Shown here piece after piece: positions 20,805 through 55,305 of a DNA stretch of 64,000 nt. This DNA comes from an uncultured Christensenella sp. (GTDB taxonomy: Bacteria; Bacillota; Clostridia; Christensenellales; UBA1242). Every line of letters starts with the position of its first letter. Position 1 is the first letter of the stretch. The notes below the pieces were generated by a model. It made no database searches, had not been told where the DNA came from, and saw only the letters and a list, made by a program, of their open reading frames with translations. Location: NCBI GenBank assembly GCA_949296965.1, contig CASFQL010000012.1:36259-100258 (forward strand), given 5' to 3'. The position numbers and the translations under genes were made by a program.

Positions 20805-20813
20805 TTATCCACA
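20805..20813 (+). promoter_or_regulatory. Perfect DnaA-box consensus 9-mer TTATCCACA
   Basis: Exact match read from the sequence. It lies in an extremely AT-rich 1.2-kb non-coding region. Confidence 0.4.
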
Positions 20814-21185
20814 GTTTGATTTTAAAAAATCGACCTAACAGTTTTTAAAAAATAAAAAGATTAGTTTTTAATTTTTTGTTTTTCAATTTATTTAGTTTAA
20901 TTAATAAGTTTTTTTATCGAATAACTATTTTTATAAGTTAAAAAATAATTAAATTGATTAGTTTTATAAATGTTTTAGAATTTCTTAAATACCGCTAAAA
21001 TAGTGATAATTAAGTTTTTTTATTAAAATAAAACCATTAATTCGGTAATAATAAATCTTTTAATTTTATTTTATTTTTTTAGATATTATTTTTTTATTAA
21101 AACATTTGGTTTTTTATATAAAAACATCTTTTTTTTATTTTCAAAAATATTATCTTTGTTTGTAAAAAAAATAATATAAAAATTG

Positions 21186-21222
21186 AGTTATCCACAATTA
21201 AATTTCTAAATTGTGGATAACT
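21186..21222. promoter_or_regulatory. 14-9-14 perfect palindrome AGTTATCCACAATT-N9-AATTGTGGATAACT carrying two convergent DnaA-box consensus 9-mers
   Basis: Arms at 21186-21199 and 21209-21222. TTATCCACA is at 21188-21196 and TGTGGATAA at 21212-21220. The site is about 195 nt upstream of the giant ORF start. Confidence 0.5.
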
Positions 21223-21416
21223 TTCTTTGCTCATTTTTTATTGAAATTCTTATTGTTAGTTTATCAAAATATTTCTTTTGTTTTTTAATATAAAAACTTG
21301 TATTTTCGTTTGGTATATAAATTATATTTATGCTAAAATATTTTATATAAAAAAGTATTTTTTATTATTTAAAATATTTTCTTTTTGTAGTGTTATAATA
21401 CTAAGGAGGACTCTTT

Positions 21417-21824
21417 ATGGAAGACGAATTAAACAAGTTTAAGGAAAAGAATTTGCAAAATAATTCTTCAAAGAATTTAGAGCAAAATCCGCCTAATAAA
21501 AATTTTTCTATGAGTTCAAATTTAAGTTCGGACAATGCAAATGGAGTTAATATAAAACCTAACTCCAATGTTTTACATTCTTCTACTTTTAATAATTCAA
21601 ATTTAGGACATTCTAACTTAAATCAAAAAGTAAATCTTTCAAATTCTTCTTCGACCTTTAATTCTTCAAATAATTTGAGTTCTTCCATAAATAATACTCA
21701 AAGACCTTTAAACAATACTCAAAGTCCGTTAAATAATAATTCAAATCTTTTAAAAGATGATAAGAATGTTTCCTATAAAGAAAATATTCCACAAAATAAT
21801 TACAAAGGCAAAAAGAGTAAAAAA
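21417..21824 (+). other. Giant protein aa 1-136: N/S-rich low-complexity, presumably cytoplasmic head
   Basis: NNSSKNLEQN...SNLSSDNANG...NSSSTFNSSNNLSSSINNTQRPLNNTQSPLNNNSN, ending in the basic stretch YKGKKSKK directly before the TM helix (positive-inside). Confidence 0.6.
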
Positions 21825-24800
21825 TTTATAATTTTAGGAGTTGCTATTTCTTTAATAGTTTTAGTCGGCTCTCTACTTTTTTTCTTACTTAGAAAAGATG
21901 AAACTACTTATACTGTTTCGTTTGAAAATTGGGTAGTTGAAATTGAAGATAAAGAGATAAAGAGTGGAAATGTTTTTTATGCTCCTACACCAGAAAATAT
22001 TTATTCCATTACAGATTCACAACAAGAGATTTTAACCTTTAATGGTTGGGTATATGAAGATGGAACAAAATATACTCCAAAAGAACTTACTAGCGATTTA
22101 GTTTTGTATGCTACATATACTTCAAGTGATATTACTACAACTTTTGTTATAAAAGATTATTATAGTGGCAATCAAAATAAATATATTTTCTTATCAAGTG
22201 TTACAACAACATTCTTTGATGCAAATGGTGTTGATGACAAAATTTCATTTGATAGTGTATTAGAAGAAAAACTTTTTAATTTTGACGACTCACAAAATAT
22301 TAACAATGTTTTGTATTATGATATAAATAATAAAATTTTTGAAAATACTCAGAGTTCAGTTAGTATTGAATCATACAAAACTTTCCTTAATAATTATTAC
22401 TCTATTTCTAATTTTACTTTGCTTAATAATGAAGAAAAAATTGATTTTGAAATTAATGATACTATGAATACTCCACAAGGGAATATGGTTGTCGTTGTTA
22501 ATCTTAATCCCAAAGAAGTTGAGTTAATTTTTAATTCTAATTTTGATAGTGTAAAAAATGAATATGGCAAAGATGATTTTGAAGATTATTCTAAAAGTCA
22601 AAGTGTAGTCTATGGAACTGACTACGAATTTTTTAACTTTATAGATATTTTTCCTAATGTAGATTTTAATAAGTTAATTCCTAATCATACCTTTCAAGGT
22701 TGGTCGACAATTTCTCCGATATTTGATAGTGACGGAAATGTCACCAACATTGAAGAAATGGAAAATAATTTGTTTATTAATTATCAAAGGGAAGTTATAG
22801 ATTTTAACATTTTAAACAACGGTAAAGAATTAAATCTATATGCAGTTTGGAAGACGGGCGAAACTGCCGTTATTATTTACAATGAAAATAATGGCGTTTT
22901 ATATTCAACTAATATTATGGTTGGTAGTTCTAACTCGCTATCTAATATTTTAGGTGGTGATTTTAGTAAATTTGATAAACAAGGTTATTCTTTAATTGGT
23001 TTTAATACTAGTAGAGATTTGAGTGGAAAAATTGCTAACAAAGACACTGTTATTTTAGGGGGAATAAATTCAGAATATTATAATCAAGTTAATGGGGCTA
23101 TTGTCTTATATGCAGTTTATAAAAAAGTTTATGACACAACAACAATTAATCTAAATAGTGATAGTGTTGATCAAATTTCTAATTTAGATGAAAGTAATTT
23201 AAGTAGTTTGCTTAATGTCAACTTAAATATTGATGGCTATGTTTATGAAAATGATATTGAGTTTAGTTACTCACAAATTAACAATTCTATTGTAATTACA
23301 AATCTTGTTGAAGGGGCAACTATTTCCTTGCCACAATTTGATAGGAGTAATTATACTTTAACGGGTTACTATACAAATAATTTGATGTATGATGCAGGTA
23401 GTAGTTTTACTATATCAAATCCTTCTCCTAAGATTTTTAGTATTAATATTGATACTATTTGGCAGGGAAATGATTTTGTGTTTGCTATCTCATCAAATGA
23501 CGATAGTTTAACTCCTACAAAAGAGATACAAGTAGAATATGGTGTAGAAATTTTATTTACTTACGATTACAATTTTACTGATAACTTTTCTAATATAATT
23601 GTTTCGTTATTTAGCAATTCTCTATTAATTTCAACTGTTGAAATACAAAAAGAGGGGCATACTTTTGTTAACTTTACTGACATAAATTCAAACATTTTAT
23701 CTAATAATTCTTATTTTGTTGTGAATTCTACTTTTGATGAGATATTTGTTAATTGGCAAGTTTGCTCTTATGATGTTATGTTTATGCTAAACGGTGGAAC
23801 ACATACTCCAACTTCTGCAAGTAGTGTTACTTATAAAGTTAATTATAATGACACTATTAACCTAAAAGAAATTTCAAGTAATATTGATAAACAAGGTTCA
23901 TATTTGATAGGTTGGTCAACGGATAACGATGCTAATGTTGTGTATAATTATCAATATGAAGATTTGATAATTACTAATGAAACGACTCTTTATGCTGTCT
24001 ATAAAATTGCTAAAAAACTCATTGTTTATTTAGACGCATCAAGGTCTAATTATGTTGAAGTTGTTGCAGATATTGAAGATTATTTTGTTTTAACAAATGA
24101 TATTTTTGACGGATACGGATTTAGTTTTAATTATTACAGTAGTTATGAAAGTTCTTCTATTGATACCTTAATTACTGCAAGCACTCAAAAGCGAGTTTAT
24201 AATTATCCAAATGATGTAACTGAGATTTATGCTATTTGGTATGAAATAAATTTTGAAAATGGTTTGATTGATGGTCAAAATATCGAAAATAGCGGGATTG
24301 TTGGCAATCCACCACAAACAAGTTATGTAACAAATAATATAACTTATACTTTTCCTCAATCTTATTATGATGATTCAAATTCTTATTTTAATCTAAGTGG
24401 TTGGGAATTTGGTAGAGAAATATATGATATAAATTCAAGTTTTGAAATAAATGAGCAACTTGGAGCACCTAATTCGCTAGTTGTGTTTACTGCAAGTTGG
24501 GGATATAAAGATGTTCTTGTTCAACTATATTTGGATAAAAGTGCTCAAAGTCCATATATAGAAGGTTATGCTGTTGATTTTGAAGATAGTAGAGTGTTTA
24601 CTATTTCTGTTGAAAATGGTAGATATCCACAAAATTCTAGCAAAGTTTTAGATTATTTTAGTAGTTATGATAATGCTTATTTTGTAGATAATGATAAAAT
24701 TACAATTAACATTCCTTATCCAAATGAAAATATGCAAAAAATAAATGGCGAGTTTGTTTACCCTTTGTATGCAAATTGGAAATTTAAGACTACTTTTAAT

Positions 24801-27800
24801 GCTAATAATGGTAATGGTTTAGATGTTGCAACTATTGATGTTGGTGTAGATTATGATAAAACTACATATGCTAATGGAATTGTTCCTATAAGCGTTTTAG
24901 AAAGTATTGAAAATAAATACTCTTTAACCTTACCAACTTGTGAAAGTCTTGGGTTTGTAAAAACACATTCCGATTTTAGTTTGTGGGAAAATGTTATTAC
25001 AAAAGAACAATTAAGTGCTGGACAGGAAGTTGTTTTACAAGAAAATCAAACATTTGATGCCGTTTGGATTGGTAAAAATTATACTGTAAACTTTGTAGAT
25101 AGTGAGGGTGGAAATCAAACTGTTTCAAAGACTTTTGAATATGGTTTAACCTATTCTTTAAGTGATTTGTTTGATTTGACAAACTATAATACAGAGTATG
25201 AGAATGCTACTACAAATAGATATAAAGTTGTTTCAAATTTGAGATATAGTTATGGAAATACAATAAAAGATTTTGAATTTGACGACGATGTGTTTTTTGC
25301 AACTTTTGATAGTTATTCCGATGGGTTTATTTCTAGCCAAGATTTAACAGATGATAATGAAATTAATTTTGAAGTTGTTTGGACTGAAAAAACTTATATT
25401 CTCAAAATTGCATTTGACAATGGTTTGTGGGACAATAATGTCGGCGAAAGTTATCTTTTGATTGGTGGTAGACTTTATATTGAGAATGGTCAATATTACT
25501 TTAACTATCAAACAAGACTTTCTGAATTAGATGTTGGTGATGATAAAAATGGTAAAGAGATTGCCTACAAAGGTTTTTATAAGTTAGGTTATAAATTTGG
25601 TGGACTTAGCGGAGATAGCAGATTTATAAATAATATAATAGGTGATAATGATAATATTACAAATTATTATTTAAAATTTAGTAGTAGTGCAAGTGATTTT
25701 GACAGTTTAGCAAACGAAGATGACATAATAGAACTAACTGTAATTTGGAATGAAGTTTTAACTGTTGACTTTAACCTTAATGGTGGCTTTTTAAGTGAGG
25801 GTATAAAGTTAAATTCTATTCAAGTTGGTTTTGATTCAAACAATGGGGCTACAATAGTTTTACCTGAGTTAAATAGCGATGATTTCTCAAAGGCTGAAAG
25901 TGTTTTTGCAGGACTTTATTTCACAAATGATACGCAAGAATTAAATAGAGAAGATGCCGTCTTATTTAATTTCGGGGATAGTATAGTTATTACGAGTGAA
26001 ATTTTGTCTAAATTTGGTAGTAGTGAAAGTAGAAGCATCATAATTTATTTTATTTGGAAAGCAACTCTTACCTTTAATGCAAATACTTCTTATAGCGTTA
26101 TTGGACACTTTACAAAAGATAGTAGCGAAATGATTGCTTCAACTTCTACTTCTTTTAGTCAACAATTTTTCTGCGGAGAAGAACTTACTCTTAATGACCT
26201 TTATTCATACTATTTTGTGCTTGATAATATTGACTCTTTTGAAGCAAAAGGTTGGAAGACAAGTTCTGGCGATAGCACGAATTTAAAAAGTTTAATAATA
26301 GACTCTAACATTAATCTTTATGCTAATTGGATTCAAAAAGAAGTAAAAATTTCGTTTAAAAACTTTAATGGCTCTGATTTTAATCAAAGTCAAATCTACT
26401 TTGAAGAATTTTCTGGGGCTAGAATTAATTTAAAAGACAAATTCTTGGAATTAAGTTCTTTTGGGTTGCCTACACTTGAAGGGTATAATTTTGTTGGTTG
26501 GGCAACTAATTTTGATAATAATTTGGTTTCTTCAAAAGATGAACTTGGCGAAGATGTTTACTATAATTTTGACCAAATATTTGTTATACCTAATTATGAA
26601 ACAACTTTGTATGCAGTTTTTGAAAAGTGTCTAGTAACTGTTACTTACATTGTTAATAACGAAAATGCACAAAATGTTCAAAATGTGGTCGAAACCGATT
26701 TAAGATATGGAGATACTTATTATATAAGGGAAGATATTCCTTTTACTGTTAGTTATTTTGACCTTCTGGGATTTAGTTTAGATGATGTAAATTCACAAGG
26801 AATTTTATCTAAAAATATTGTCTTAAATATTGATAACGGACTTACTAAAGTAGTTAGTGGCGATATTGTAAGTTATGAACTTAATCTGTATGCTGTTTGG
26901 AGTCGTCAAACAAAACGATTTGTGATTGAATTAAATGGTGGCTCATTTAATAATAGCGGTAAAAATAATGATTTACCAACTTTCTTTGATTTAAGTGGTG
27001 AAAAAATTAAATCATTTAGTGTAAATAAGTCCAATTTAACTGTTGAAGTTTACTTGGGGCCTGAGGGTGAATATGGCTTAACTTTACCAAGCAATAATTA
27101 CTTATTTAGAGATGGTTATGCTCTAAGTAAATATGTCGTTGATGGACAATCTTATGTTAGTGGTAACACTTTAAGTGCTACTACTTCAACTATGCAAACT
27201 CTCAGTGTTACTTGGATACAAGTAATAGAACTTAGGGTATATTCAAACTACAATTTGGATGATGAGCAATATTTAAGTTTTAGTTTAAATTTAGATGATA
27301 CATTGACTTTTGATATTGTAGGCAAATCAATTTTTAATGTTTCAACTCAAAAGACTTATCAAATTTCTTTTGATAAACCTCATTATGAACTTGCTTATAT
27401 TTCTGCTTCAAAAAATAGTGGAAAAAATTATCAAAACAAGCAATATAAGGTAAATGATACTGAATTTGTTATTACAAATGGTATTATAAATCTTTATTGT
27501 GCTTGGCAAGGGGTAAATATTTCCGTTGTGATTGATGCTTGCGACAATGAAGAAAATTTACTTGATACCACAGTTACGACAATAGAAAATGCGTTTAGGT
27601 ATGGCGATGATTTTGTAATTAGTAGCGTTTACTCTATTAGCCAAAGGAAAGATGAAAACGAGGGGTATGAACTAGATTATTTCTTAGACGAGTTTGGTAA
27701 CAAATATTATGCTAATGATGTCTTTAACCCTGAACTTGATAATTTAGATTACAAAAATAGTTATGAATTTAATGTTGTTTGGAAACAGAAAGAATTTAAT

Positions 27801-51800: not shown

Positions 51801-54800
51801 TCAAAATCAAATGGTGGAGTAATAATGTCGGGTGGATATATTAAGAATAATATAGCAAGTAACTCTGGTGGTGGTGTTTATAATGCTGGAAGATTTGTTT
51901 TAACAGGTGGCGAAATTGGTGGAAGTGATGGCGAAGGTAACGAAGCAGTTTATGGTGGTGGTATATATAACGAAGGTTATCTAAATATTAAGGACAATGT
52001 AGAAAGAATTGATACAGAAACTATTGATGAGATAAATGTAAATAGTAGTGTAACAAGAAACATAAAAATTTCTTATAACAAGGCAACTAATGGTGGTGGA
52101 ATATTTATTTCTGACACACTAGATAGTGGCGAAAATAGTTCTCAAATAATTAGCGTTTTAATTAATAATAATACTGCAACAAATGGTGGCGGAATTTATT
52201 ATTCAAATGGTGAATTAATTTTTAAAGATAATAAGATAGTTGGGAATAAAGCCCAAGGCGTTTCACCAGACGAAACAGGTTCTGCTGGAAATGGTGGTGG
52301 AATTTATATTGCTTCAAATTATACAAATTCTCCAATATTAGAGATTGTTAATTGTTTAACATTTAGCAATTCAGCAACAAATGGCGGTGGTATTTTTGTT
52401 GAGAGTGGACGAGTAATACTTACATTTGATTCTAGCGCTAACCAAACTGTTGTTTCAAATTCAGCAACAAATGGCGGTGGTATTTATGTTAAAGGCGGAC
52501 TAATTGACATTTCAGGTAAAGGCAGTGATAGCAATGAACAACTTTATAGTTTTGCTATTAGTAGTAATACTGCAACTATGGCAGGTGGTGGACTTTACAA
52601 TGAAGGTGGAGTTGTAATAATTACAAACACATTATTTACTAAAAACACAGTAACAAGTTCTAGTGGAAATGGGGGAGCAATTTATACAATGTCAAATGCA
52701 ACGCTTTCTTATCGTAGTAGTGAATATCAGGGTGTATTTGTCAATACAATAATCTTAGAAGAAAATTCAGCAACAAATGGTGGTGGAATCTATATTAATT
52801 ATGGTAAAGCAACTTTAAAGAGTGGGCAGGTATTTAAAAATACTGCTGAAAATGGTGGAGGAATTTATATAATAGGAAATAATTTCCAACAAACTGCATC
52901 GCTAGAAATACAAGATTTAAAAATTTACAACAACATCGCAAGTAGTAGTAATAGAGATGCTAATGGTGGTGGTATTTATATAGGTGAATATGCAACTGTT
53001 ACTTTAAAGGGTAATAGCAATGTTAGCGAAAATATAAATAATCTTGCAAATATCTCTAACATTTACGAAAATTATGCTAGCAAAAATGGTGGTGGAGTTT
53101 ATTTGTATGGAGCAAATTCAGTATTTAACTTTGAAAGTGGTGTAATTTACAACAACTATGCTGCCTACGGAAGTGGTATCTACATTAATGGAACTAATAG
53201 TGAGACAAAACTAACAATGCAAACTGATGCATTTATTATTAAGAATGGTAACTACTCTAATCTTAGTCAAATATTTAAGACATTTGGGGGTAGTAAGATT
53301 GTAAAATATACTGTAAATTATGGCGGTGGTATATATGTCACATATGGTAGTTTAGATTTGAATGGAAGCATTTTAAATAATATTGCAACAGATGGTGGCG
53401 GAATTTATATAAATAATACTGTGTATAATTTTAGTGGTAATCCACTTATTGGTGCAAATGAAAAACTTGGACTTAATGGCAATGAAGCAATAAATTGTGG
53501 CGGTGGAGTTTATGTTTCTTCAAGTGGGATTGTATCGTTAAAGGGTGTTATTTATAAAAATACTGCAACAAATGGCGGTGGTTTGTATTCTAGTGGAAAG
53601 CTTACAATTGGTGGAGAAACAAAAGATGATTCAAATGGTTTTGTATTAATTTCAGGCAATAAGGCTACAGATGGTGGTGGAGCATATGTAAATGGTGGAG
53701 AAACAACTTTCGGAATAAACAGTATAGTTGGTCAAAATAGTGAAAGAACTAATTCTGAACAAAACGGAGATGTTGAAACTTCTTATCAATTATATAATGA
53801 AGCTTCGAATAATGGTGGTGGTATTTACATTAAGGCTGGCACAGTTAAAATGAGTGGTTTTGTTGGATATAACAGGGCTTCAAATAATGGTGGCGGTATT
53901 TGTGTAGATGTTGATATTAATTCGCAAGACGAAAATGCTTTTGTTTCTTTAACAATAGGAGAATTGAATAAAGAAAGTGCAGTATCACATAATGTTGCAA
54001 CAAATTATGGTGGCGGTATATATGCTAACTTTGGGATATATGATCCTAGTAAAGATTCTGAAAATGTTTTAATTATTAGTGGTGGTATAATTAAACTTAA
54101 TGAGAGTGGTAGTAAAATAGATAGAACATTAAACTACTATATGCCAGAAGCAAATGCTCCTAATGTTAAAGTTACTCCATATGCACCAGAAGTTCATATG
54201 TATAATGGTAGACTAAAAATGCAAGGTGGTGTAATTCAATATGAAACTCCACAAGATAAAGATTCTAGCGATATTATTAATTACCTTGCACTTTATTGGG
54301 TAGCCGATGGGCAAAACGATATTGATTTCAATAACAATACGGGAGCAATTAAAGGAAATATATTTATTGATAATGGAAACAAATATGTGATAATTAATAC
54401 AAGTTGTATTGCTTTTGATAATAATAGTGAAGACGAAAATGCAAATAACTCAAAACTTTTCCAAAGTAGTCATATTAACGAACTGCCTATAAAATTCTAT
54501 AATTACTATTACGACCATCATGTAGAACAGACATTTGATTTAGTTGAGTCTATATTAGGAATTTTCCAAGGTGAATTTAATATTATGCAAAATAAAAGAG
54601 TTTTTGAAATTTATCTTAACCCAAATATAAGTGGGTTATATAGAGTAACTGGCTCTGATAAATTTTTAGGTTCATCATTTATTTGGATTCCAGATATTAA
54701 TTATGATGAATTAAATGGTTTTGTTAATTCAATTGCTGGTTGGATTAATAAAGCAATAGATTTTTTAGGTCTACAAGATGTAATTAAAATAGATGACACA

Positions 54801-55223
54801 CTTGAAAGTGTAGAAAATGTTGGCGGTTGGTTTGATATTGACATAGATATAGATTTGGACATAGATGCCTATGAAAATAATTTTTCTATTGTTCAATCTG
54901 TTATTAGTGCAACAAAAATACTTTCTAACTTTGTAGATTTCTTAGTTTATGTTAATGAGGGCTTTGGTGATTTGGAAATTATCTGGAGTTGGAGTCCTCT
55001 TGGACTAGGTGGTAGAGAATCTTCTCTTAGCACTTGGCTTGAATATAGAAACAAAACTCCTATTGGCTCACAAGATGTAACTAGGACATTTGAAGCAATA
55101 TTTACTTCATTGGCTGACATTGCTGGAGTTGTAATTAAGAGTTTTATACCAGAACCTTTTGGAACATTAGTTGCAAAAATACTTACTTCATTCGTAGATG
55201 GATTTTTTGCACCAGAGATATAA
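21417..55223 (+). CDS. Giant (11,268 aa) N-terminally membrane-anchored surface protein: Listeria-Bacteroides-type repeats, BspA-type LRRs and seven PMP-type beta-helix modules; putative adhesin
   Basis: 11,268 sense codons with no stop. SD AAGGAGGA (21403-21410) lies 6 nt before the ATG. A hairpin terminator sits 52 nt after the TAA. There is one TM helix (aa 137-158). Recurrent repeats of about 70-80 aa follow the pattern G(Y/F)xFxGW...LYA(V/I)W. Dozens of NGGAIY / YGGGIY beta-helix turns are present. Confidence 0.9.
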   Translation: MEDELNKFKEKNLQNNSSKNLEQNPPNKNFSMSSNLSSDNANGVNIKPNSNVLHSSTFNNSNLGHSNLNQKVNLSNSSSTFNSSNNLSSSINNTQRPLNNTQSPLNNNSNLLKDDKNVSYKENIPQNNYKGKKSKKFIILGVAISLIVLVGSLLFFLLRKDETTYTVSFENWVVEIEDKEIKSGNVFYAPTPENIYSITDSQQEILTFNGWVYEDGTKYTPKELTSDLVLYATYTSSDITTTFVIKDYYSGNQNKYIFLSSVTTTFFDANGVDDKISFDSVLEEKLFNFDDSQNINNVLYYDINNKIFENTQSSVSIESYKTFLNNYYSISNFTLLNNEEKIDFEINDTMNTPQGNMVVVVNLNPKEVELIFNSNFDSVKNEYGKDDFEDYSKSQSVVYGTDYEFFNFIDIFPNVDFNKLIPNHTFQGWSTISPIFDSDGNVTNIEEMENNLFINYQREVIDFNILNNGKELNLYAVWKTGETAVIIYNENNGVLYSTNIMVGSSNSLSNILGGDFSKFDKQGYSLIGFNTSRDLSGKIANKDTVILGGINSEYYNQVNGAIVLYAVYKKVYDTTTINLNSDSVDQISNLDESNLSSLLNVNLNIDGYVYENDIEFSYSQINNSIVITNLVEGATISLPQFDRSNYTLTGYYTNNLMYDAGSSFTISNPSPKIFSINIDTIWQGNDFVFAISSNDDSLTPTKEIQVEYGVEILFTYDYNFTDNFSNIIVSLFSNSLLISTVEIQKEGHTFVNFTDINSNILSNNSYFVVNSTFDEIFVNWQVCSYDVMFMLNGGTHTPTSASSVTYKVNYNDTINLKEISSNIDKQGSYLIGWSTDNDANVVYNYQYEDLIITNETTLYAVYKIAKKLIVYLDASRSNYVEVVADIEDYFVLTNDIFDGYGFSFNYYSSYESSSIDTLITASTQKRVYNYPNDVTEIYAIWYEINFENGLIDGQNIENSGIVGNPPQTSYVTNNITYTFPQSYYDDSNSYFNLSGWEFGREIYDINSSFEINEQLGAPNSLVVFTASWGYKDVLVQLYLDKSAQSPYIEGYAVDFEDSRVFTISVENGRYPQNSSKVLDYFSSYDNAYFVDNDKITINIPYPNENMQKINGEFVYPLYANWKFKTTFNANNGNGLDVATIDVGVDYDKTTYANGIVPISVLESIENKYSLTLPTCESLGFVKTHSDFSLWENVITKEQLSAGQEVVLQENQTFDAVWIGKNYTVNFVDSEGGNQTVSKTFEYGLTYSLSDLFDLTNYNTEYENATTNRYKVVSNLRYSYGNTIKDFEFDDDVFFATFDSYSDGFISSQDLTDDNEINFEVVWTEKTYILKIAFDNGLWDNNVGESYLLIGGRLYIENGQYYFNYQTRLSELDVGDDKNGKEIAYKGFYKLGYKFGGLSGDSRFINNIIGDNDNITNYYLKFSSSASDFDSLANEDDIIELTVIWNEVLTVDFNLNGGFLSEGIKLNSIQVGFDSNNGATIVLPELNSDDFSKAESVFAGLYFTNDTQELNREDAVLFNFGDSIVITSEILSKFGSSESRSIIIYFIWKATLTFNANTSYSVIGHFTKDSSEMIASTSTSFSQQFFCGEELTLNDLYSYYFVLDNIDSFEAKGWKTSSGDSTNLKSLIIDSNINLYANWIQKEVKISFKNFNGSDFNQSQIYFEEFSGARINLKDKFLELSSFGLPTLEGYNFVGWATNFDNNLVSSKDELGEDVYYNFDQIFVIPNYETTLYAVFEKCLVTVTYIVNNENAQNVQNVVETDLRYGDTYYIREDIPFTVSYFDLLGFSLDDVNSQGILSKNIVLNIDNGLTKVVSGDIVSYELNLYAVWSRQTKRFVIELNGGSFNNSGKNNDLPTFFDLSGEKIKSFSVNKSNLTVEVYLGPEGEYGLTLPSNNYLFRDGYALSKYVVDGQSYVSGNTLSATTSTMQTLSVTWIQVIELRVYSNYNLDDEQYLSFSLNLDDTLTFDIVGKSIFNVSTQKTYQISFDKPHYELAYISASKNSGKNYQNKQYKVNDTEFVITNGIINLYCAWQGVNISVVIDACDNEENLLDTTVTTIENAFRYGDDFVISSVYSISQRKDENEGYELDYFLDEFGNKYYANDVFNPELDNLDYKNSYEFNVVWKQKEFNVILDFGTGVYKSSTTTTSKLIYTCLYNEVFDLKLTDFLPENAYHADDAYDGRTYRLYDFDKFTSKTISFDDNQTFVMPASDVTFSVNWVSKNINFVFDANNSYISDEVNGGSYQNSDLTSDYDVKLRNDKLVVMNFKIGDILDLSKLPSPIYEGFNFMYIYLQDYNGVGIFDTLSEQFYSYENTDTFTINEDIINSTLLTLDNLWNESENAFELHFTISWIVNKYTINYVAQLPMIANGYNYDASSTISSSSSNLQEMVYDQPATLRAGFSLYGWEQVGWTTVLNYKDIIPSGENKNAYYFSDGICENEYAYNFTSENNAEVKLYPIWEQKEFSLNLIDLQANNNIVDNDGEYNSKIISFLFDERVVIDDLFARNQISIKPYSFENNTYYVPTGIRYFYTENDSRVELDFTFEDYLVFALSPTGFINAKDLTDDNTIEFEIIWTEVYFDIYFDLNGGKYDENAFGLVCDIDDSGNYVLKGKVRYSSILSGVSTLEEFGLVEDKIIKEKNNLTYSFAGWALQESSENMYSLKGDMLTFSLSSPEESLKPDENGNFDFVFVFVAMFNEYKISINIDNASIKESVEDTFADENQNVWVVKRVENVGQEQGGVQIEKEEFYTYSYANNVFTILDSVFNNFEKEFYHLEGSNQVEIIVSSTRDNIVDIPFIGNERYLTIYSTNDSDSFTISQDFKYIQNLLKEGSNNFGYIKLQDSQSPTEQNFVYVYDETTHSGRFENYNSQQTYEDGTIFYEKVYDKAITLKLRYGDEILSGDFAKLSLVSMANFTGWGDENGIYSDTEFFVGGDDNNVINLFSYFDKVYVTFNLNGGLYDNKEQIPVREATLNGQVYQIDLPLITHQDGQQLGPTKFGYIFLGYSYYFKNYEEYNISVIENKDELVVLPSSQAGVSTPYTLSGSKSETLYAIFKPIQTTFTFTIKNSDDDPIAQATTFTVTKNYGESFEMPTKGVGEFGSIIDSWVREDSVFVGWKINVNSSTHYEYSQGYSYVLDGTKDFKYYKDNGLAIPTDITVYSIWEIPNVSIKLYLGSEPISSYRYFGDDSNGIKRDSNNQVYLESISSLKSTHKLPSLTNFYLKDMVAVAYSKSSDLSNPFISEEITIDTKDIIKHEDGSYEFKLYIKWDNADSYILGYYNGLNKYFASFDSCLSFVNNIFENEPTNIYDNAIYDKKIVELFILDLYDTFTITKTTTVKEEFTLTINLDENVKNNKSLVRADDFTDYLFVVNEGAKLVVNSKTGFEISFDGKEILSNGMFKVVSGELEFNSGVVVNNSYNSGLEVREGFGAVGGVIQVDNGKISLTNVKFSNNGVKSSVDAYGGVIFAFNSLVNISGCEFQDNFVQSSLNAYGGVIALVDCKSDNFDDTSLRNNINNSIFNNNFATTTSSSQNNYAFGGGIYNYNSDFAFESDFIYAVSSNKADTSGGFLYSTTQTGATNLINFKKTSFTSNYALNGGALFIENSLVKLDNIEFSQNGFILLSETEVIYAECGGAIYGGENAQIEMLNTDENVSDSGDGDNSLVTTTIGKFMSNFARNGGAIYSLGNDLDISSLMFYNNGLPMTSNDGKGGALYLGSVGENVNNVSIAFSQFKFNISKYGGAIYVDGNVILNIDAPQATKDQIQAVLDKGSEVTEETLRYVSNTFSTNYAEYGGAIYYNSILSSTIDYSIFEYNMLNAGYDAKPSLKGGAIYSANGELTLKDFVWIYENYAVEGGGVYVGADQGQTSGEEENSVAKLIVIGTKFYYENKIVGDYNNINAYHEAVEKLEELKTSGASQEEIDEVQAVVDQLREQIKGEIITETKGNRATYGGSVYIGQFGYADLSSGGNRGNTMYDLERGDAVYNLGTLKIGDFDIYQTNVNGNITTIYNCGDFEIYGYGQIRPSPRIYLSKNSDNTGYNYILISNLNYSNVSSIELVISTDDIILNSPLVKFASQEAYDAFVNNADNENLFSVNDPTLILDADVEQLALVLHYRSYEIKFEDLSQDKDKLNLPLPITFEYGETVSEEFITSLNNLTVLRDGYSFVGWAYFVQDDVDGNVLLDSKNTGVKYSGVDFVEVYDYLDSSIKGKHFYLLSNLVEHTSSYNSLLPAHNFYLYPIWKPDEYKISYSYASNEGLENYAINGIQVTDSYLNALSSVEYYNNYYTIKSLQDLNASVFAKYVTISVVEEQNGIIKTIKYNNLNYPVTFDENFGYYSFSIMSGESELLEKFYIESNTSAFSILNVDENGYIYSTLDTSKLYPIQVVIDGQIVDVVNSTVSYNGENYVLRSLYRPDGYEFDYVVINGAKNYSLGSQFLISRDNPYSICVGSDKNLVFNVFFKKIAQQIEFVIDENNSFTINRYSGQEISLPSGNVCSYDDVSYEIYKDGYELKGFVDQNGKNYALGETYLVKENSSNKHIFTAVWEKAICYIENGVMINGEFKPKYYTSLEQAFSDINNGNLTTNLDNYRIVIIGNNFIYQSQQNSSLLNLVGASSSVYEISMIVNQTFVITKNITLVLEGNNVSLRLVYADDFDKSKPMFEVVENEFTLGGNGVSITLDGTRTDGTNSLVVVEENGNFISNVGVEFTNSTIDSKFGINDKGGALTVNGKATINSSVFANNRSNNGGAIYVASNGNLTILGNDSNVNLFVNNSATNGGAIYLSQNSSLSITGKDASNNIVLSQNTADNGGALYLNSSLSSLRLENINLVNNVANLYGGAIYNSGDIKLDYDLIFTENSASISGGAIYTVGKLEISKSTFNNNISQQSGGAIYSENNLNVNNVKFLQNKAGAGSGGAIYAKNTLYVNGQTSFNENSANYGGALYLNNVSGEISNTTFNKNTSINGGAIYLNSSNITLTESCQLTNNIVSVSSSGDDNVAAYGGAIYVNNSQVHIYSTISENYSDTEGGALYVLNASRVVLYEQSKITNNTSYGVGGGISINGSSTLTFNSNLVEISNNSASKYGGGIYYNSSAISVLDGGNIYGNDIEFDKDGLKKGKEIYLTTSTTLTLNNTIICEKSNIQGQTNVYDIYIGENALLNMNSSVVYGSIYVKDIEFNREPINGINFNSSSFARDIHLNQYRYISIDGYLNSILLEDNKINIHFSYNKPGLTTNTPNNTKIIRFLSEDSLNKNIIYFNLVRDEELRDYTLTYENDGYYSWAVIKEIAKEIRINPNGGKIIFNDSYTSEIYEVSGNEILTIYDLPGRGSLEFLDEIQGYRAGYQKLDYYIDMDNNKVYTSSSILPIILITLNVQWSEKEYSVNLLTTQANGSEKQEKLTIKYGQDIKLREPSLDYHSFVGWELAYYKNSNLVKTGIIFEKGSNFNLANINREDLVSSITGQTGSQIFESVDLSTSTFYLYSVFEEVQVEIIVKTSQGMVVETQNSKYEREKINDFTYKYLVSQSNMYVNYNDFVDDFAYQDHVVDGLFTGTNGIYEKNIDVMYDRNNSSISISNISSLTLNCYWIKVEAYIRKPNVEDSSKNRVNYESLLVAVNNLVSGDELVIVASSIDIQSTLIFNEDVTVFARGNVTLNRAKNFAGQLILIKADVEFKGETEESSLTINGNGNELLEDGSTNPKYTAFSNYGAFYVEFGSSLLLGENITIKNNVSKYYGAGIYGEGEVTLNGVTISNNLSYENGGGIYSKGNLTLENGNITNNSSNKNGGGVYVASNKLSINNSFINNNTAKNGAGLYFESLVSAEISGGEINNNASSLLTNSYGGGVYLALNCGVVTFKQNIVLKGNSACYGGGIYVAGNNNGYNEYTVILDGVNILENSATYGGGIQIGNETENYSLQKVKLSQGSIQNNLSTYGGGVGIFRGQFDLISGTISQNNAKFGSNIFVSAVDSKSYGYVKISGGIVGDENNLGSILVEAKTSTILGVLEVCSTYKIYSTVLLLNNAYISVKSNISDDSSNIVIRPISIVSNEIVDNYPSFDSQIVAVKFDNVNLVKTTKFDLLEEAKSKQENSYRLKQVDENIVICRAVFTLTFDPQNGSISTSGEYDFIKDNQKISIDMAYTSNLFGLLGSISVSYENKDFLYWYYLNEEMEIVVDEVTTMPYSDLTLFAKWSVDYYTLSIDLNDSRTNSGNKAVVDIEAASEIEDFVYDEQSRIINLKVFIDDESSNYGESALKSIYPLITRYGYEIISFSTSQILGQGSSYNANGSGFKMPSENITLYLIWNAMQYSIIYSSNRPNETSAEEKIISDYKFDEFINLATAELFSCVGYNLVGWSYTKGNQNADFSVGEKALNILREDNQSVRLYGVWEPIQYKVIYDSNAQGRVVSGQVEDQIFVYDEENFLTSNRFTSLGYTQIGWSLSKVVNDGDEFYEFEDGLIAVNLTSESEVTLYAVWSNNSYKVNLYNRQGSMIVSTITAFYDEDNLNLPLASQLFGSVENNLYFAGWSLTLPSENQEVKYLDGAVIDNFVYEGEINLYPVYCERSVIINSNNEQNITLPLNIDSQGNVTISKTQIESLMTYSGFEIGYLGLSNVHSENEKKYEFGNNEEIILNVITENFTSTELFIIWQAKQYQINFIVNGKEYAEFASQVKSTKVSQGNAYSTYQDNNTVTLYSNIVSGIELIGWSFDTNQNIVNYLPNTSFELTNQTLSTIATYGQIVDNVITVYGVTQKEYSITYNLNTDIQNIIIGSTTSITSKNSIKTGTLLNSNPVQIKFSDYYGNVWEIASSNIQDSSSKFAYFLGWSLSPTATSAEYYDGMDLSKVMFVGDVTLYAVWGEYTNTFYFDYEETTNGVILTSLNQLGITNLEDNSEIILPRHTLVYNDGDLSYGKEIVSIKSLNKVDTSVSSINLKFMSSLQSIPSQAFAGYKNLKEVVNIPQSCDISGGAFISTSLQRVTFITSEEPVYVTDLSYNVYKVDNNSAQLISFLYVNALSEMELELNSSIQTEKRTYLLSSILSNAFYGLEVTNLIIPESVETMNEGSLNGLNNLVSLTLNFIGYDNQVTNDNNQTFIFMFGGLENISSKLTTIVVRDESEIVNSSFAGITSLVSLTYLNGITSIGSDAFNGCINLNILAGTNSNEFDLSQVEFIGARAFYGCENLPTSLRFTNTNEIGDQAFSYTNITTVYLSRNVKNLGVSSSGEKNTAFKNATSLVSATVFSTYCFDAVINNTGIVPNSLDCVIYIDITFSVVLENIKDIKLKEKYYSYNVVIYDSIEVFDEDYNSIGTYGSLKQAISDAQSGNIVVIKTDLTIYEQILINKDITILSAFNLVEEDNEAYQYLDGITSININISDSLVDTNAFVIKDSNVNFATKFVSQTDEQYKNLTINIIGTDLRSQSLFLIQGSNVSFGEGLYISNFNQTENAVVNGSVAKIINGSNVIFSNVNLTNNSATNGGALYVESSTINFIRSEISYNNADNGGAIYLSSQSILNIDEDTKLYNNNALMGGAIYVNTQILEENYSNIFGRVIIENNNAQFGGAVYIENGYVIVDNSDIEIKSNSANSGGAFFVQGGILQVSNGMIGSEDSPNTANAGGGVYVGGQGVIKVLGSGSISYNRATLGGGIYFASLYTQIAKASQIKGKITNNNDLSILQNGNVLGGGIYAQSGILNIESETSLISQNYANYGGGIYNEGASIEIISAKNENNDINSGITKNYANYGGGIYNYQGSINIKAGNIVENSAIYGGGIALYDGEIQVLQNDNVSSNIIRNTANYGGGIYIYNNGKLRFSSSNLSLNSATISQDLQDSGNGGGIYLLDGSVVFEGGEISYNTANNGAGLFVTKGSKTLSFEMYENTLITQNNAINNGGGLYVNSLLTLSSGQILNNTANLGGAIYISNKSLLTLDKVSISTGNSSQDNYTQGVYLEENCAENSFSITNQTSINKQDTFVYLNKGCVVYVLDKFVGENQIKLYLVESIIDNKVKAAVFAKEEYASIGKFYAIETAFTREKNIIYAVESSVVDITDELNLINYATLKDAVEQSPDNKQVILQLIKDQEITSKMIVSVGKEKDIVIVVRKQEYITRGIEENGNLFTGFLFEVFGRLTFNLNNYTNTLVVDGKNVENSASLIYIAKDGQVTMNANVELVNNIANYSSIIKVTNPDNGTIQNVDNTSNGGAIYVDGGSFTMNGGLIYNNKAENGGAIFVKSGNVFIVEGTLGRQVIDGDIVNNNYGYNVASENGGAIFVQSGSAYIYENALISGNLATNGGAIYSNGIVSLEKAKIEFNTALQNGGALYLNSNSIIDASNHFTLSCVDISNNKALQNGGAILLLAGNLSILGESQSETSKFYLNYALNGGAIYNCGTGKFNITLTDFYSNSATNNGGSIYFENESISNSSEIVNSKFGVTTPNTANLGGAIFINSGKLTISSSSIVLNTALNNGGAIYVGGSGNLLLNTTLSENITTIQSNSAINGGAIYIDTSGDVEILGCYISNNIATNNGGAIYQVNGSLRLVQTSGQSLGGVSENTSTYDGAGLYLIGGYASLESAIVSRNVISSGNGAGLYISGANVEIRGSSISNNVISQSSDINLDRDGQGIYYNAGNVTLYGDNFINNPINEAESRSGSIVIEGTTSLDQCFTLAGVINNLVDAFYLKTRDSWINTLEKDYSGSDDGFSVNDQGNPTVLIKINEEKLYNDKIVKFTAQSLAQYNYLKYFELPLSTKKLLVVGQGDLADYIVLSYQYFYIIGKNDNKLEVDKPVKIIAAYDDLQEAIDSLNLYEGKLKDTEKGFLIIANIVNETHTFTFDKTITIKNDSLLSVKKITITSLTENVKFVKSDSSKDFEFISVEEGYELVLGINEDFSSYYDILLEETFDSSVYKNALTFVGSDESLSSMIVNNGTLQLREGTVFTNQNSLQNGAVVNNYGTLIVDGAKIFNNSAENGGAIYSNTGSTLNINSGYIHNNLATNGGAIYLANGSTSNIYGGFIGIGEESIISEYNLTKTGNNAIDGGAIYVDGAVLNIYGGEIANNYASNNGGAIYITTYTNNSQNIHSKVSLLQNDSTSINVQIYSNEAYMYGGAVYVEDNNMNKDVDFEERSSFVFNAGSINRNKSASGGALYATSFVLNNGEKSYNGAIKEEDGLTYTYGVYVEINGGNFESNSANYRVINDTSVGGNGGTIYLYGANSKISNSIIEGIKSEIGVVDTRTALNGGGLYLNNSFVLVGNNVNIRFNEVSNNGGGIYVDANSNLKIDGDENTIISSNKATSSNSKGGGIYPEKGAKVNLVAVTIRLNSSLGLGDGVYVDSNGNDFSIGAGMVNGEIAKLSNNLKIIDSIYLVTGSIIYVDGRFNSDYYNNENEENFITIVSDYSSSVSLNDETRNVVAEYNNNIPLEDTLSIDAKLFKGSDRTGKAYCFIIYEDYKVAIGIANIAKKVEGSSVIRFYETLEDAINRISTDETMTTIFILTNVSVESKIYIKSNNILIKCGEKIEEDNEIKVKEDTDLIYTISIGDIDTGDIFEISNNENSTIIEFRKLNIVGKESNIRLFNVFSGTLTLNGVNISGFRSELDGSILNASGGQINIMGEKESNSGVENYSTQITNNTAKNGIINVNTLASLRISGNGVKFSNNTALNGIVYIDTYGEVYLEETVFGGTSLSTNITENGGAIFIQNGSLTLDRAVLEYNKSTNGGAIYYNGGSIILNDSSIKYNTAVNGGGIYFNESYAFATKEETSSKFSNYAVTTILGNNATNGGGIYINNNVTLTGVLEISSNIASNNGGGIYVNRNCQLILDDNVLISSNKSNSNGAGIYLGESSKLNALSSVATLNTRNDLSKSIFGGGIFAESNTVINLNDNAIISSNESQNGAGIYSKGIVNILGNATISNNETTGNGGGIYVNGNLTMNNGSIFANSATNGGGIYLNSGKIEFTNGVIGGDFWFGYEGSENLENSKSGNYASNNGGGIYINDGEFVFGSQSVSKSTNDTQKLAQVLFNFAQINGGGIYINKVKDTGVNTIYNDFIVTQNVAETASGGGIYIQSGKLNMLGGQIGGQVSETKESSTTQTNTGNVAVNGGGIYIGSGVKEINLEGGTILGNFASQNGGGVYVDMNGDNDVVVNVISQIIISNNSAVNGAGIYISTYTSSSKSNGGVIMSGGYIKNNIASNSGGGVYNAGRFVLTGGEIGGSDGEGNEAVYGGGIYNEGYLNIKDNVERIDTETIDEINVNSSVTRNIKISYNKATNGGGIFISDTLDSGENSSQIISVLINNNTATNGGGIYYSNGELIFKDNKIVGNKAQGVSPDETGSAGNGGGIYIASNYTNSPILEIVNCLTFSNSATNGGGIFVESGRVILTFDSSANQTVVSNSATNGGGIYVKGGLIDISGKGSDSNEQLYSFAISSNTATMAGGGLYNEGGVVIITNTLFTKNTVTSSSGNGGAIYTMSNATLSYRSSEYQGVFVNTIILEENSATNGGGIYINYGKATLKSGQVFKNTAENGGGIYIIGNNFQQTASLEIQDLKIYNNIASSSNRDANGGGIYIGEYATVTLKGNSNVSENINNLANISNIYENYASKNGGGVYLYGANSVFNFESGVIYNNYAAYGSGIYINGTNSETKLTMQTDAFIIKNGNYSNLSQIFKTFGGSKIVKYTVNYGGGIYVTYGSLDLNGSILNNIATDGGGIYINNTVYNFSGNPLIGANEKLGLNGNEAINCGGGVYVSSSGIVSLKGVIYKNTATNGGGLYSSGKLTIGGETKDDSNGFVLISGNKATDGGGAYVNGGETTFGINSIVGQNSERTNSEQNGDVETSYQLYNEASNNGGGIYIKAGTVKMSGFVGYNRASNNGGGICVDVDINSQDENAFVSLTIGELNKESAVSHNVATNYGGGIYANFGIYDPSKDSENVLIISGGIIKLNESGSKIDRTLNYYMPEANAPNVKVTPYAPEVHMYNGRLKMQGGVIQYETPQDKDSSDIINYLALYWVADGQNDIDFNNNTGAIKGNIFIDNGNKYVIINTSCIAFDNNSEDENANNSKLFQSSHINELPIKFYNYYYDHHVEQTFDLVESILGIFQGEFNIMQNKRVFEIYLNPNISGLYRVTGSDKFLGSSFIWIPDINYDELNGFVNSIAGWINKAIDFLGLQDVIKIDDTLESVENVGGWFDIDIDIDLDIDAYENNFSIVQSVISATKILSNFVDFLVYVNEGFGDLEIIWSWSPLGLGGRESSLSTWLEYRNKTPIGSQDVTRTFEAIFTSLADIAGVVIKSFIPEPFGTLVAKILTSFVDGFFAPEI
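21825..21890 (+). other. Giant protein aa 137-158: single TM helix (signal anchor)
   Basis: FIILGVAISLIVLVGSLLFFLL flanked by KKSKK and RKDE. I noticed no other comparably hydrophobic segment. Confidence 0.7.
21891..31208 (+). repeat. Giant protein aa 159-3264: array 1 of Listeria-Bacteroides-type (Flg_new / InlB B-repeat-like) repeats, about 30 units
   Basis: Repeat ends such as FNGWVYEDG...LVLYATY, FQGWST...NLYAVWK, GYSLIGFNT...VLYAVYK, LIGWSTD...TLYAVYK, FVGWATN...TLYAVFE, NLYAVWSR, KLYPIWEQ. The boundaries are approximate. Confidence 0.65.
31209..33734 (+). other. Giant protein aa 3265-4106: beta-helix module 1 (cap, PMP-type GGxIY helix, stalk)
   Basis: Cap YFASFDSCLSFVNN...TITKTTTV. 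Turns AYGGVIFAF, AYGGVIAL, FGGGIYNY, NGGALFI, CGGAIYG, NGGAIYS, KGGALYL, YGGAIYV. Stalk RIYLSKNSDNTGYNYILISN. Confidence 0.6.
33735..35030 (+). repeat. Giant protein aa 4107-4538: Listeria-Bacteroides-type repeat array 2
   Basis: GYSFVGWAY...YLYPIWKP and GYELKGFVD...IFTAVWEK. Confidence 0.55.
35031..37241 (+). other. Giant protein aa 4539-5275: beta-helix module 2
   Basis: Cap YYTSLEQAFSDINNG...IVIIGNN, followed by a very regular run of N(N/A)GGAIY turns and then the stalk IHLNQYRYISIDGYL. Confidence 0.65.
37242..38135 (+). repeat. Giant protein aa 5276-5573: Listeria-Bacteroides-type repeat array 3
   Basis: INPNGGKI...TLNVQWSE and HSFVGWEL...YLYSVFEE. Confidence 0.55.
38136..39677 (+). other. 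Giant protein aa 5574-6087: beta-helix module 3 (GGGIY subtype)
   Basis: Cap NYESLLVAVNNLVSGDELVIVASSIDI. Turns ENGGGIYS, KNGGGVYV, KNGAGLYF, YGGGVYL, YGGGIYV, YGGGIQI, YGGGVGI. Stalk LLLNNAYISVKSN. Confidence 0.65.
39678..41918 (+). repeat. Giant protein aa 6088-6834: Listeria-Bacteroides-type repeat array 4
   Basis: TLFAKWSV, TLYLIWNA, GYNLVGWSY...RLYGVWEP, GYTQIGWSL...TLYAVWSN, FAGWSL...NLYPVY, ELIGWSF, FLGWSL...TLYAVWGE. Confidence 0.65.
41919..43205 (+). repeat. Giant protein aa 6835-7263: BspA-type leucine-rich-repeat (LRR_5-like) block
   Basis: Recurrent pattern I(P/G)xxAFxGCxNL..I.IP.SV: IPSQAFAGYKNLKEV, ILSNAFYGLEVTNLIIPESVETMNEGSLNGLNNL, ITSIGSDAFNGCINL, FIGARAFYGCENL, EIGDQAFSYTNITTVYL. 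Confidence 0.6.
43206..45449 (+). other. Giant protein aa 7264-8011: beta-helix module 4
   Basis: Cap TYGSLKQAISDAQSGNIVVIKTDLTI. Turns NGGALYV, NGGAIYL, MGGAIYV, FGGAVYI, YGGGIY (several). Stalk FVYLNKGCVVYVLDKF. Confidence 0.65.
45450..47612 (+). other. Giant protein aa 8012-8732: beta-helix module 5
   Basis: Cap NYATLKDAVEQSPDNKQVILQLIKDQEI, then NGGAIY/NGGAIF turns, then the stalk AFYLKTRDSWINTLEKDY. Confidence 0.65.
47613..49661 (+). other. Giant protein aa 8733-9415: beta-helix module 6
   Basis: Cap AAYDDLQEAIDSLNLYEG. Turns NGGAIYS, NGGAIYL, DGGAIYV, NNGGAIYI, YGGAVYV, SGGALYA. Stalk SIYLVTGSIIYVDGRF. Confidence 0.65.
49662..54419 (+). other. Giant protein aa 9416-11001: beta-helix module 7, the longest (about 1,590 aa), mostly GGGIY subtype
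   Basis: Cap RFYETLEDAINRISTDETMTTIFILTNVSV, followed by a very long series of (A/S)TNGGGIY / NNGGGIY turns, ending in IFIDNGNKYVIINTS. The boundary with the C-terminal tail is approximate. Confidence 0.6.
54420..55220 (+). other. Giant protein aa 11002-11268: unique non-repetitive C-terminal tail (acidic DIDIDIDLDID tract, Trp-rich segment, amphipathic or hydrophobic end)
   Basis: ...GWFDIDIDIDLDIDAYENN...LEIIWSWSPLGLGGRESSLSTWLEY...FTSLADIAGVVIKSFIPEPFGTLVAKILTSFVDGFFAPEI. There is no LPxTG, SLH, choline-binding or GW motif, and no clear terminal TM helix. Confidence 0.5.
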
Positions 55224-55275
55224 CATAAAGGCATTAAGTTAATCTTATAATCTACTAATCTAGCAAGTTAACTAA

Positions 55276-55305
55276 AAAGAGTTGTGTTATGCAACTCTTT
55301 TTTGT
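55276..55305 (+). terminator. Rho-independent terminator of the giant gene
   Basis: AAAGAGTTG (55276-55284) pairs with CAACTCTTT (55292-55300) around a 7-nt loop, followed by TTTTG. Confidence 0.8.

Follow-up and report, generated by a model that had tools for sequence, protein, structure and literature searches.

A conserved 11,268-codon gene for a predicted N-terminally anchored surface protein of 1.24 MDa in an uncultured Clostridia lineage of animal guts

Introduction

UniProt lists 41,754 proteins that reach 5,000 amino acids (aa) or more, and among huge bacterial proteins those for surface attachment form the second main class (PMC11573180). Proteins longer than 10,000 aa are on record from several phyla, and proteins of more than 30,000 aa have been predicted in Firmicutes, Actinobacteria and especially Omnitrophota (bioRxiv 10.1101/2023.11.21.568195). 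Here we describe a gene of 11,268 codons in a 64,000-nt stretch of DNA, referred to below as the window (contig CASFQL010000012.1 of GenBank assembly GCA_949296965.1, positions 36,259 to 100,258), from an uncultured low-GC Christensenellales-like Clostridia bacterium of animal guts. Its product is a predicted surface protein of 1.24 MDa. An initial annotation of this DNA had placed the gene at the extreme end of bacterial gene lengths; the size is indeed rare, but it does not stand at the record end, given the predictions beyond 30,000 aa in Firmicutes and other phyla. A literature search returned no described giant surface protein for the host lineage and no paper on the orthologous group. 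The locus offers a well-supported giant bacterial gene from an unstudied, uncultured gut Clostridia lineage.

The nearest size precedent in Bacillota for the export of such a chain is Ebh of Staphylococcus aureus, a membrane-anchored surface protein of about 1.1 MDa, which shares with the window protein a mass above 1 MDa, a hold on the membrane by a single transmembrane (TM) segment without sortase, and a long repetitive chain predicted here, too, to be extracellular (PMC4856396). The two differ in polarity, the anchor of Ebh being C-terminal and that of the window protein N-terminal. Ebh carries an N-terminal signal peptide and helical FIVAR/GA-type repeats, whereas the window protein is built of beta domains and beta-helices, and no sequence relationship between them was found. 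The chlamydial Pmp proteins and Fap2 of Fusobacterium resemble the window protein in their GGA(I/L/V)/FxxN repeats (PF02415, TIGR01376) and in a predicted parallel beta-helix rod; unlike these, the window protein lacks a C-terminal beta-barrel, is anchored at its N-terminus, contains seven interleaved beta-helix modules and belongs to a host of the class Clostridia. The Pmp and BspA families, which co-occur as adhesion factors in Trichomonas, mediate adherence (PMC6701047). The BspA-like leucine-rich repeat (LRR) proteins of Tannerella and Trichomonas have a counterpart here in an LRR_5 block above the Pfam cut-off, although this accounts for only about 390 of the 11,268 aa. Giant proteins tipped with beta-solenoids are known in lactic acid bacteria, where Giant1-5 of Apilactobacillus kunkeei (3,000-8,000 aa) are likewise very large extracellular proteins of host-associated Bacillota, with beta-solenoids and an elongated predicted shape (PMC12863079). 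In Giant1-4, however, the beta-solenoid is a single N-terminal tip and the proteins derive from a recombination-diversified five-gene cluster, while the window system consists of one gene with seven solenoid modules and an architecture frozen across species. The giants of Omnitrophota (up to 85,804 aa) are also rapidly evolving, mostly extracellular and derived from metagenomic genomes, but have numerous TM helices and SecA DEAD domains (bioRxiv 10.1101/2023.11.21.568195), whereas the window protein has one TM segment and no SecA match.

Other known arrangements fit less well. The protein does not have the features of a type V autotransporter, as no autotransporter family appeared in any Pfam scan and the N-terminus consists of a 136-aa tail and a TM segment rather than a cleavable signal peptide. 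Nor does it resemble the type I-secreted adhesins of the RTX, LapA and SiiE kind, with no RTX or BIg match in Pfam and an adjacent pair of ATP-binding cassette (ABC) exporters that lacks a membrane fusion protein (MFP). It also departs from polymorphic toxins and contact-dependent inhibition systems in that its C-terminal domain is conserved, no toxin family is matched and the downstream open reading frame (ORF) is not conserved. The building blocks are known families, the PMP-repeat, Flg_new and LRR_5 families each exceeding curated cut-offs, giant surface proteins are an established class, and current ideas are not overturned. What is particular to this locus is the presence of seven PMP beta-helix modules on an N-terminally anchored chain, a length that varies with a standard deviation of 1.7% at 28-43% identity, and a C-terminal domain without known relatives.

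A single reading frame conserved across genomes

The giant ORF runs on the forward strand from an ATG to a TAA (21417..55223; 11,268 codons), with the terminal TAA as its sole stop, and the window holds no N bases. At the base composition of the ORF (29.6% GC) the stop probability is 0.089 per codon, so that about 1,007 stops would be expected and the log10 probability of finding none is about -458; the other five frames over the same stretch contain 692-1,882 stops each. The argument of the initial annotation, that chance stops should be frequent in DNA this rich in AT, is borne out by these counts, none of the expected stops being found inside the frame. Its claim of a single uninterrupted frame holds as well, in the window, in independent assemblies and in syntenic orthologues of nearly equal length.

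With regard to assembly, the exact 151-aa product of the next gene downstream occurs on four contigs. Contig L082 (Logan ERR10610602, 38.1 kb) is 100% identical to the window over 12.6 kb, and the giant gene is called there at 11,268 aa; contig L081 (ENA ERZ17292904) matches the window at 99.945% identity across 16.4 kb, where the ORF shows four substitutions, three of them non-synonymous, and zero indels, and a second contig from the same sample (L109) encodes the first 8,338 aa of the giant gene, up to the contig end. Families of DNA repeats inside the ORF reach at most 68 nt and are 60-85% identical, no pair of 200-aa segments of the protein exceeds 39% aa identity, and the coding body has no tandem arrays besides a 21-nt, three-copy repeat in the region of the N-terminal tail. 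As the internal repeats are both short and divergent, a repeat-driven collapse or chimera is unlikely, and the absence of any segment pair above 39% aa identity excludes a recent change in repeat copy number.

A reading of the giant ORF as a product of misassembly, or as a relic that is not expressed, draws on the fact that every source is a short-read metagenome assembly, and on one scaffold (L083, ENA ERZ16268200 scaffold_13320) that puts a different repeat type in frame with the 3' part of the gene. In positions 1-593 of this scaffold, 593 nt encoding repeats of the form NIGGLVG/NIGGFVG (GLUG-like) are fused in frame at about position 53854 of the window (about aa 10,813), and the junction represents either a chimeric scaffold or a recombinant allele. 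This reading is largely refuted by the 11,268 open codons, the identical or near-identical copies in independent assemblies, the at least six orthologues of like length and domain order, and the lack of long DNA repeats, and its probability is in our estimate close to nil. The case also illustrates that short-read assembly can recover a repetitive gene of 34 kb correctly if the repeats are old and divergent.

Orthologous loci were reached by using the upstream ABC exporter as a probe and calling genes on the recovered contigs (DegV, used as a synteny probe, recovered no locus). The initial annotation had asked whether the architecture recurs in related genomes, and the giant gene was found at the same position and in the same orientation in at least six other species-level genomes, its products covering a range of 10,978-11,504 aa. 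These comprise 11,466 aa (L110) and 11,495 aa (L112) on ENA scaffolds, 10,978 aa in GCA_964387705.1 (L113), 11,173 aa in GCA_949290565.1 (L193) with 11,169 aa in a second assembly of that type (L194), and 11,504 aa on an ENA contig (L195). In BRZ_E__bin128 the two ends of the gene (L084 and L118) share a 104-kb contig and are separated by about 34.0 kb; provided that the frame stays open through the unseen middle, the orthologue there would measure about 11,340 aa. With the window protein counted in, lengths average 11,314 aa with a standard deviation of 194 aa (1.7%).

The sequences themselves have diverged considerably. The N-terminal ~3,000 aa of the orthologues are collinear with the window protein at 43% (L193), 36% (L084), 35%, 34%, 28% and 28% identity, and the C-terminal 2,800-3,250 aa of two orthologues are collinear with it to the very end at 43% and 33% identity, while the identity to the window proteins in those genomes is 87-91% for Tex, 62-78% for the ABC proteins and 48-66% for phosphoglucomutase. 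The combination of fast sequence change with a retained length and domain order points to a functional, selected product with an old and frozen repeat architecture. The giant gene is real and under selection. With at least six orthologues in which length and order are kept while the sequence diverges much faster than that of the neighbours, the group constitutes a natural experiment on the constraints acting on giant surface proteins. The distribution is patchy, as the gene is absent at the locus in two genomes (L114 and L115) despite a similar Tex identity. A rule by which the gene would be present only at an ABC protein identity of at least 69% proved wrong, since L193 has the gene at 62% and L114 and L115 are without it at 66-67%.

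Anchor and domain architecture

The giant protein has a pI of 4.35 and begins with an N/S/K-rich low-complexity tail (aa 1-136; 21417..21824, forward strand, as for all parts of the gene), which has a pI of 9.7 and is predicted to be cytoplasmic. This is followed, after the basic patch KGKKSKK, by a TM signal-anchor (aa 137-158, FIILGVAISLIVLVGSLLFFLL; 21825..21890) with a Kyte-Doolittle value of 2.87, the sole segment above 1.6 across the 11,268 aa. A low-complexity tail of 120-240 aa, a basic patch and a TM segment recur in all five orthologues inspected (by hydropathy in L084, L110, L112 and L113, and by direct reading in L195), so that the single N-terminal anchor proposed in the initial annotation agrees with both the hydropathy profile and the layout of the relatives. 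No conserved signal-peptidase or lipobox site follows the anchor, which suggests that it is uncleaved, and the basic tail together with the acidic ectodomain (pI 4.3) predicts, by the positive-inside rule, an orientation with the N-terminus inside and the C-terminus outside (type II). An LPXTG-like motif (regular expression [LN]P.[TSA][GNDA]) is matched nowhere in the giant protein, and a sortase gene is absent from the window. The tail itself contains repeats, NNTQ(R/S)PL three times in the window (21688-21754) and GVPPIK repeats in three orthologues (L084, L110 and L112); its sequences differ among orthologues, while the repetitive, proline-containing character recurs.

Beyond the anchor lies a predicted membrane-proximal stalk (aa 159-3274; 21891..31238) with 19 Flg_new-like (Listeria-Bacteroides repeat) domains and about 1,360 aa outside them. 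Pfam Flg_new (PF09479) itself detects one copy above threshold (aa 785-861, 30.4 bits against a threshold of 27) and two further copies below it (20.9-24.5 bits). Internal Flg_new profiles at strict thresholds recovered the seed only. A profile seeded on the validated copy and its orthologous columns, iterated with lenient per-domain thresholds, found 29 copies that share a G(Y/F)xFxGW ... LYAxW pattern: the 19 of the stalk, two in aa 4109-4535, one at aa 5356 and seven in aa 6087-6834. As only lenient thresholds worked, decoys were added to the run, and the profile recruited 110 real hits, no reversed decoys and one block-shuffled decoy. NCBIfam gave no Flg_new match in the giant protein and nothing in aa 159-3274, and a sequence search of the PDB with the N-terminal 3,115 aa returned nothing.

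The central and distal parts of the chain are dominated by seven PMP-repeat beta-helix modules, each of which opens with a 'Y-x-S/T-L-x-x-A-I' cap (aa 3283, 4557, 5593, 7285, 8026, 8757 and 9432). Module 1 (aa 3275-4100; 31239..33716) has its N-cap at aa 3283 and is identified by the motif map and by Chlam_PMP (PF02415) at 28.5 bits, module 2 (aa 4545-5290; 35049..37286) by Chlam_PMP at 67.6 and 56 bits and POMP_repeat at 82.9, and module 3 (aa 5585-6085; 38169..39671) by Chlam_PMP at 24.1 bits and POMP_repeat at 27.3. They are separated by a linker with two Flg_new-like domains (aa 4101-4544; 33717..35048) and one with a single such domain (aa 5291-5584; 37287..38168). After module 3 come seven tandem Flg_new-like domains (aa 6087-6834; 39675..41918), assigned with the in-house profile and sub-threshold Pfam scores of 20.9-24.5 bits, and a BspA-type LRR block (aa ~6840-7230; 41934..43106), in which the LRR_5 (PF13306) scores of 58.2 bits (over three stretches) and 28.5 bits exceed the cut-off of 27.7. 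Modules 4 to 7 then follow each other without interruption (aa 7275-10890; 43239..54086), the seventh being of double length, and Chlam_PMP exceeds its cut-off in all nine protein pieces from this region. In total, 14 of 30 pieces exceed the Chlam_PMP cut-off of 20.6 bits, with scores of 20.8-67.6, and TIGR01376 (POMP_repeat) reaches 82.9, 57.7 and 27.3 bits, its cut-off being 15. Strict GG[AG][ILVFM][YFS] motifs number 91 compared to 0.66 in shuffles, and all 94 FxxN-GGA-like pairs fall inside the beta-helix blocks.

The check set by the initial annotation, a Pfam search for three proposed families, has accordingly placed Chlam_PMP, LRR_5 and Flg_new each above its curated cut-off. Its description of about 11,100 aa as repeats of three types is correct as to the types and too generous as to their extent, since the families leave about 2,000 aa uncovered and the last ~380 aa form a separate domain.

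An AlphaFold2 (AF2) model of module 4, built on an alignment of the seven paralogous modules, reached a pTM of 0.71; its core, where pLDDT values are 70-90, consists of about 60 short strands, and the module is predicted to be beta-solenoid-like. The top 50 Foldseek matches of this model in the PDB are nearly all right-handed parallel beta-helices, including polysaccharide lyases of family 6 (PL6), rhombotarget A, pectin methylesterases, tailspikes, PfbA, the autotransporter passengers Ag43 and Hbp, and Fap2; as none is significant, the result was used for fold class only. A PDB sequence search with modules 4-7 returned nothing.

The chain ends in a conserved C-terminal domain (aa 10891-11268; 54087..55220), predicted to be membrane-distal, which is 39% identical in L116 and 24% in L118, some 50 positions being invariant. 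Over its last ~45 residues the domain is moderately hydrophobic in the three orthologous proteins compared, with Kyte-Doolittle values of 1.55 (window), 1.72 (L116) and 2.01 (L118). No match was obtained in Pfam (with the last 364 aa), among PDB sequences, or among 5.8 billion proteins searched with the single sequence and with a four-sequence alignment, and the sole results from a search of 1.84 billion representatives were a fragment of an orthologue (P0121) and a match to a nuclease that is spurious (P0122). Neither of these protein searches returned the giant protein or its contig-truncated fragments, even though the contig index includes gene calls of 11,268 aa. The two libraries seem to lack very long or truncated products, and for giant proteins a search there that yields no homologue is weak evidence. 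An AF2 model of the domain from a two-row alignment was unusable (pLDDT 29.9). Being distal and without known relatives, the C-terminal domain is the obvious piece for structural and binding work.

Proposed function and alternatives

The architecture is probably that of an N-terminally anchored surface fibre that projects adhesive modules onto mucus, glycans or other cells. The basic N-terminal tail would remain in the cytoplasm, while the single hydrophobic segment would act as an uncleaved signal-anchor, inserted co-translationally in type II orientation by the general signal recognition particle (SRP) and Sec(YidC) route. The chain may then fold vectorially, domain by domain, outside the cell; accessory export factors may be encoded elsewhere in the genome. 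The string of Flg_new-like domains, about 3,100 aa in length, would form a putative wall-crossing stalk that holds the seven rigid PMP-type parallel beta-helix rods, the LRR block and the C-terminal tip away from the cell, so that the distal modules could bind ligands on host mucus, glycans or other cells. If a helix turn takes up about 24 aa and 0.48 nm, and a small domain about 4 nm, the beta-helix modules (5,689 aa) are estimated to span about 110 nm and the ~29 or more small domains to add a similar length, which gives an extended fibre of roughly 0.2-0.3 µm. Attachment appears the most likely role because the Pmp and BspA families are adhesion factors elsewhere and surface attachment is a major class among huge proteins.

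Several points weigh against this reading. The adhesin role is a prediction drawn from the domain families. As many as 28 of the 29 Flg_new-like copies depend on the lenient in-house profile, albeit a decoy-controlled one, and the Foldseek search of module 4 against the PDB gave no match at E <= 1e-3 (best E = 0.07; TM-scores of at most 0.42). About 82% of the chain is assigned, with ~2,000 aa and the C-terminal domain left without an assigned fold. In addition, large surface proteins can hinder adhesion, as exemplified by Ebh in S. aureus (PMC4856396).

In an unlikely alternative, a dense brush of ~0.2-µm fibres would serve as a steric coat or spacer that fends off phages, immune factors or other cells, or sets the spacing of cells, and physical length would be what is selected. 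Membrane-anchored Ebh of 1.1 MDa interferes with clumping, probably through steric hindrance (PMC4856396), and the narrow length distribution at 28-43% identity, together with the lack of recent copy-number change seen from repeat pairs that never exceed 39% aa identity, would also fit such a role; on the other hand, the LRR_5 (BspA) and PMP families are known above all for their adhesins (PMC6701047), and a pure spacer has no need of a conserved distal C-terminal domain. The same regularity of length, with no recent turnover of repeats, underlies a more speculative proposal, to which we give little weight: a molecular ruler with a new kind of tip, whose fixed length would let the partly hydrophobic C-terminal domain engage a partner surface at a set distance. 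A host cell or another microbe might, for instance, offer such a surface in its membrane or envelope, and if true the proposal would suggest an attached, epibiont-like lifestyle for this low-GC gut lineage.

Two further alternatives assign an activity to parts of the chain. The beta-helix modules might be lyase- or hydrolase-like (CASH or pectate-lyase fold), making the protein a surface-tethered degrader or binder of host or dietary polysaccharides. Carbohydrate-degrading domains do occur in giant proteins according to West-Roberts et al. (bioRxiv 10.1101/2023.11.21.568195), and Foldseek weakly matched module 4 to, among others, PL6 alginate lyases, pectin methylesterases, polygalacturonases and phage tailspikes. 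No Foldseek match reaches E <= 1e-3, however, and the TM-scores stay at or below 0.42; glycoside hydrolase, lyase and esterase families are absent from the Pfam and NCBIfam scans of all pieces, there is no PDB sequence match, and the repeats are of the non-catalytic PMP type, all of which makes an enzymatic or glycan-binding machine improbable. A contact-dependent effector or anchor, in which the C-terminal domain is delivered to or inserted in a partner membrane as a toxin or harpoon-like tip, would agree with the position of this domain at the membrane-distal end, its lack of relatives beyond the orthologues and its hydrophobic or amphipathic end in three orthologues. Polymorphic toxin tips, however, swap between strains, while this domain is conserved and collinear at close to the level of the rest of the protein (24-39% compared to 33-43%). 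As there is also no toxin match in Pfam, the downstream 151-aa ORF is not conserved (BRZ_E__bin128), and the AF2 model of the domain is uninformative, we regard this alternative as very doubtful.

Expression signals

The 1.2-kb intergenic region upstream of the giant gene (20190..21416, forward strand) has a GC content of 13% and holds a Shine-Dalgarno (SD) sequence and a conserved motif. The strong SD noted in the initial annotation is confirmed (AAGGAGGA at 21403-21410), including its 6-nt spacer to the ATG. An alignment of seven orthologous upstream regions (A5) reveals a conserved 5' motif at about 21365-21416, consisting of TAAAATATTTTT, about 13 nt and then (G/A)ATAATACTAAGGAGGA. The ATAAT of this motif abuts the SD, and the window version, TGTTATAAT, is extended -10-like. 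The arrangement may be a promoter whose transcript has a very short leader, or else a conserved 5' element, and ATAATACT-AAGGAGG may be regarded as a conserved putative promoter/SD arrangement upstream of the giant gene. No Rfam family was found in the window or in the 5' region, and hence no riboswitch such as one for c-di-GMP. At the 3' end, a terminator-like intrinsic hairpin of 13 pairs followed by a T-run (55274-55302, forward strand) is the sole terminator-like site in the stretch scanned, and none occurred in shuffles; it begins 50 nt past the TAA, close to the 52 nt initially given.

The DnaA-box consensus TTATCCACA is matched exactly at only three sites of the 64-kb window (20805-20813, 21188-21196 and 21212-21220), all of which fall in the 1.2-kb upstream region, and two of them form a palindrome, GTTATCCACAAT-N10-ATTGTGGATAAC, about 205-229 nt before the ATG. 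A replication origin at this site was considered and rejected, as there is no switch in GC skew and the sites are absent from the orthologous upstream regions; the matches are probably due to chance or represent a species-specific operator.

Gene neighbourhood and host lineage

The neighbours of the giant gene are ordinary Bacillota genes, encoding phosphoglucomutase, DUF1015, Tex, two ABC exporters, DegV, iron-containing alcohol dehydrogenase (Fe-ADH), YpsA, a sugar transferase and a glycosyltransferase. The two exporters are full-length (ABC_membrane+ABC_tran), lack an MFP or C39 peptidase and are transcribed divergently from the giant gene (16544-20189, reverse strand). The pair also adjoins Tex in L114 and L115, and because it is kept where the giant gene is absent, its adjacency appears to reflect plain synteny rather than a dedicated exporter. 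Among the other ORFs of the window there are no Sec accessory, sortase, chaperone or type I secretion genes, in agreement with the earlier remark that none stood alongside; no tRNA was found in the window. Directly past the terminator lies the 151-aa ORF (55406-55861, forward strand), which has no Pfam match and its own strong promoter-like site (TTGACA-17-TATATT, 55356-55384). Its position is not conserved, as it is absent in BRZ_E__bin128, where the giant ORF stops 190 nt before Fe-ADH.

Other large ORFs for surface proteins occur near Fe-ADH in more distant relatives: one of 1,904 aa with a C-terminal TM anchor in 'Christensenella sp.' MGBC128010 (L120, 1480-7191), and one of more than 2,446 aa in a metagenome-assembled genome (MAG) of Candidatus Onthoplasma (L192, 13853-21190). 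Neither shows similarity to the window giant protein (BLASTP, E <= 1e-5). As to the host, the Tex protein of the window is 84-91% identical to that of uncultured Clostridia and 'Christensenella sp.' MAGs from animal and human guts, and Christensenellales is where related names, Candidatus Onthoplasma among them, are placed.

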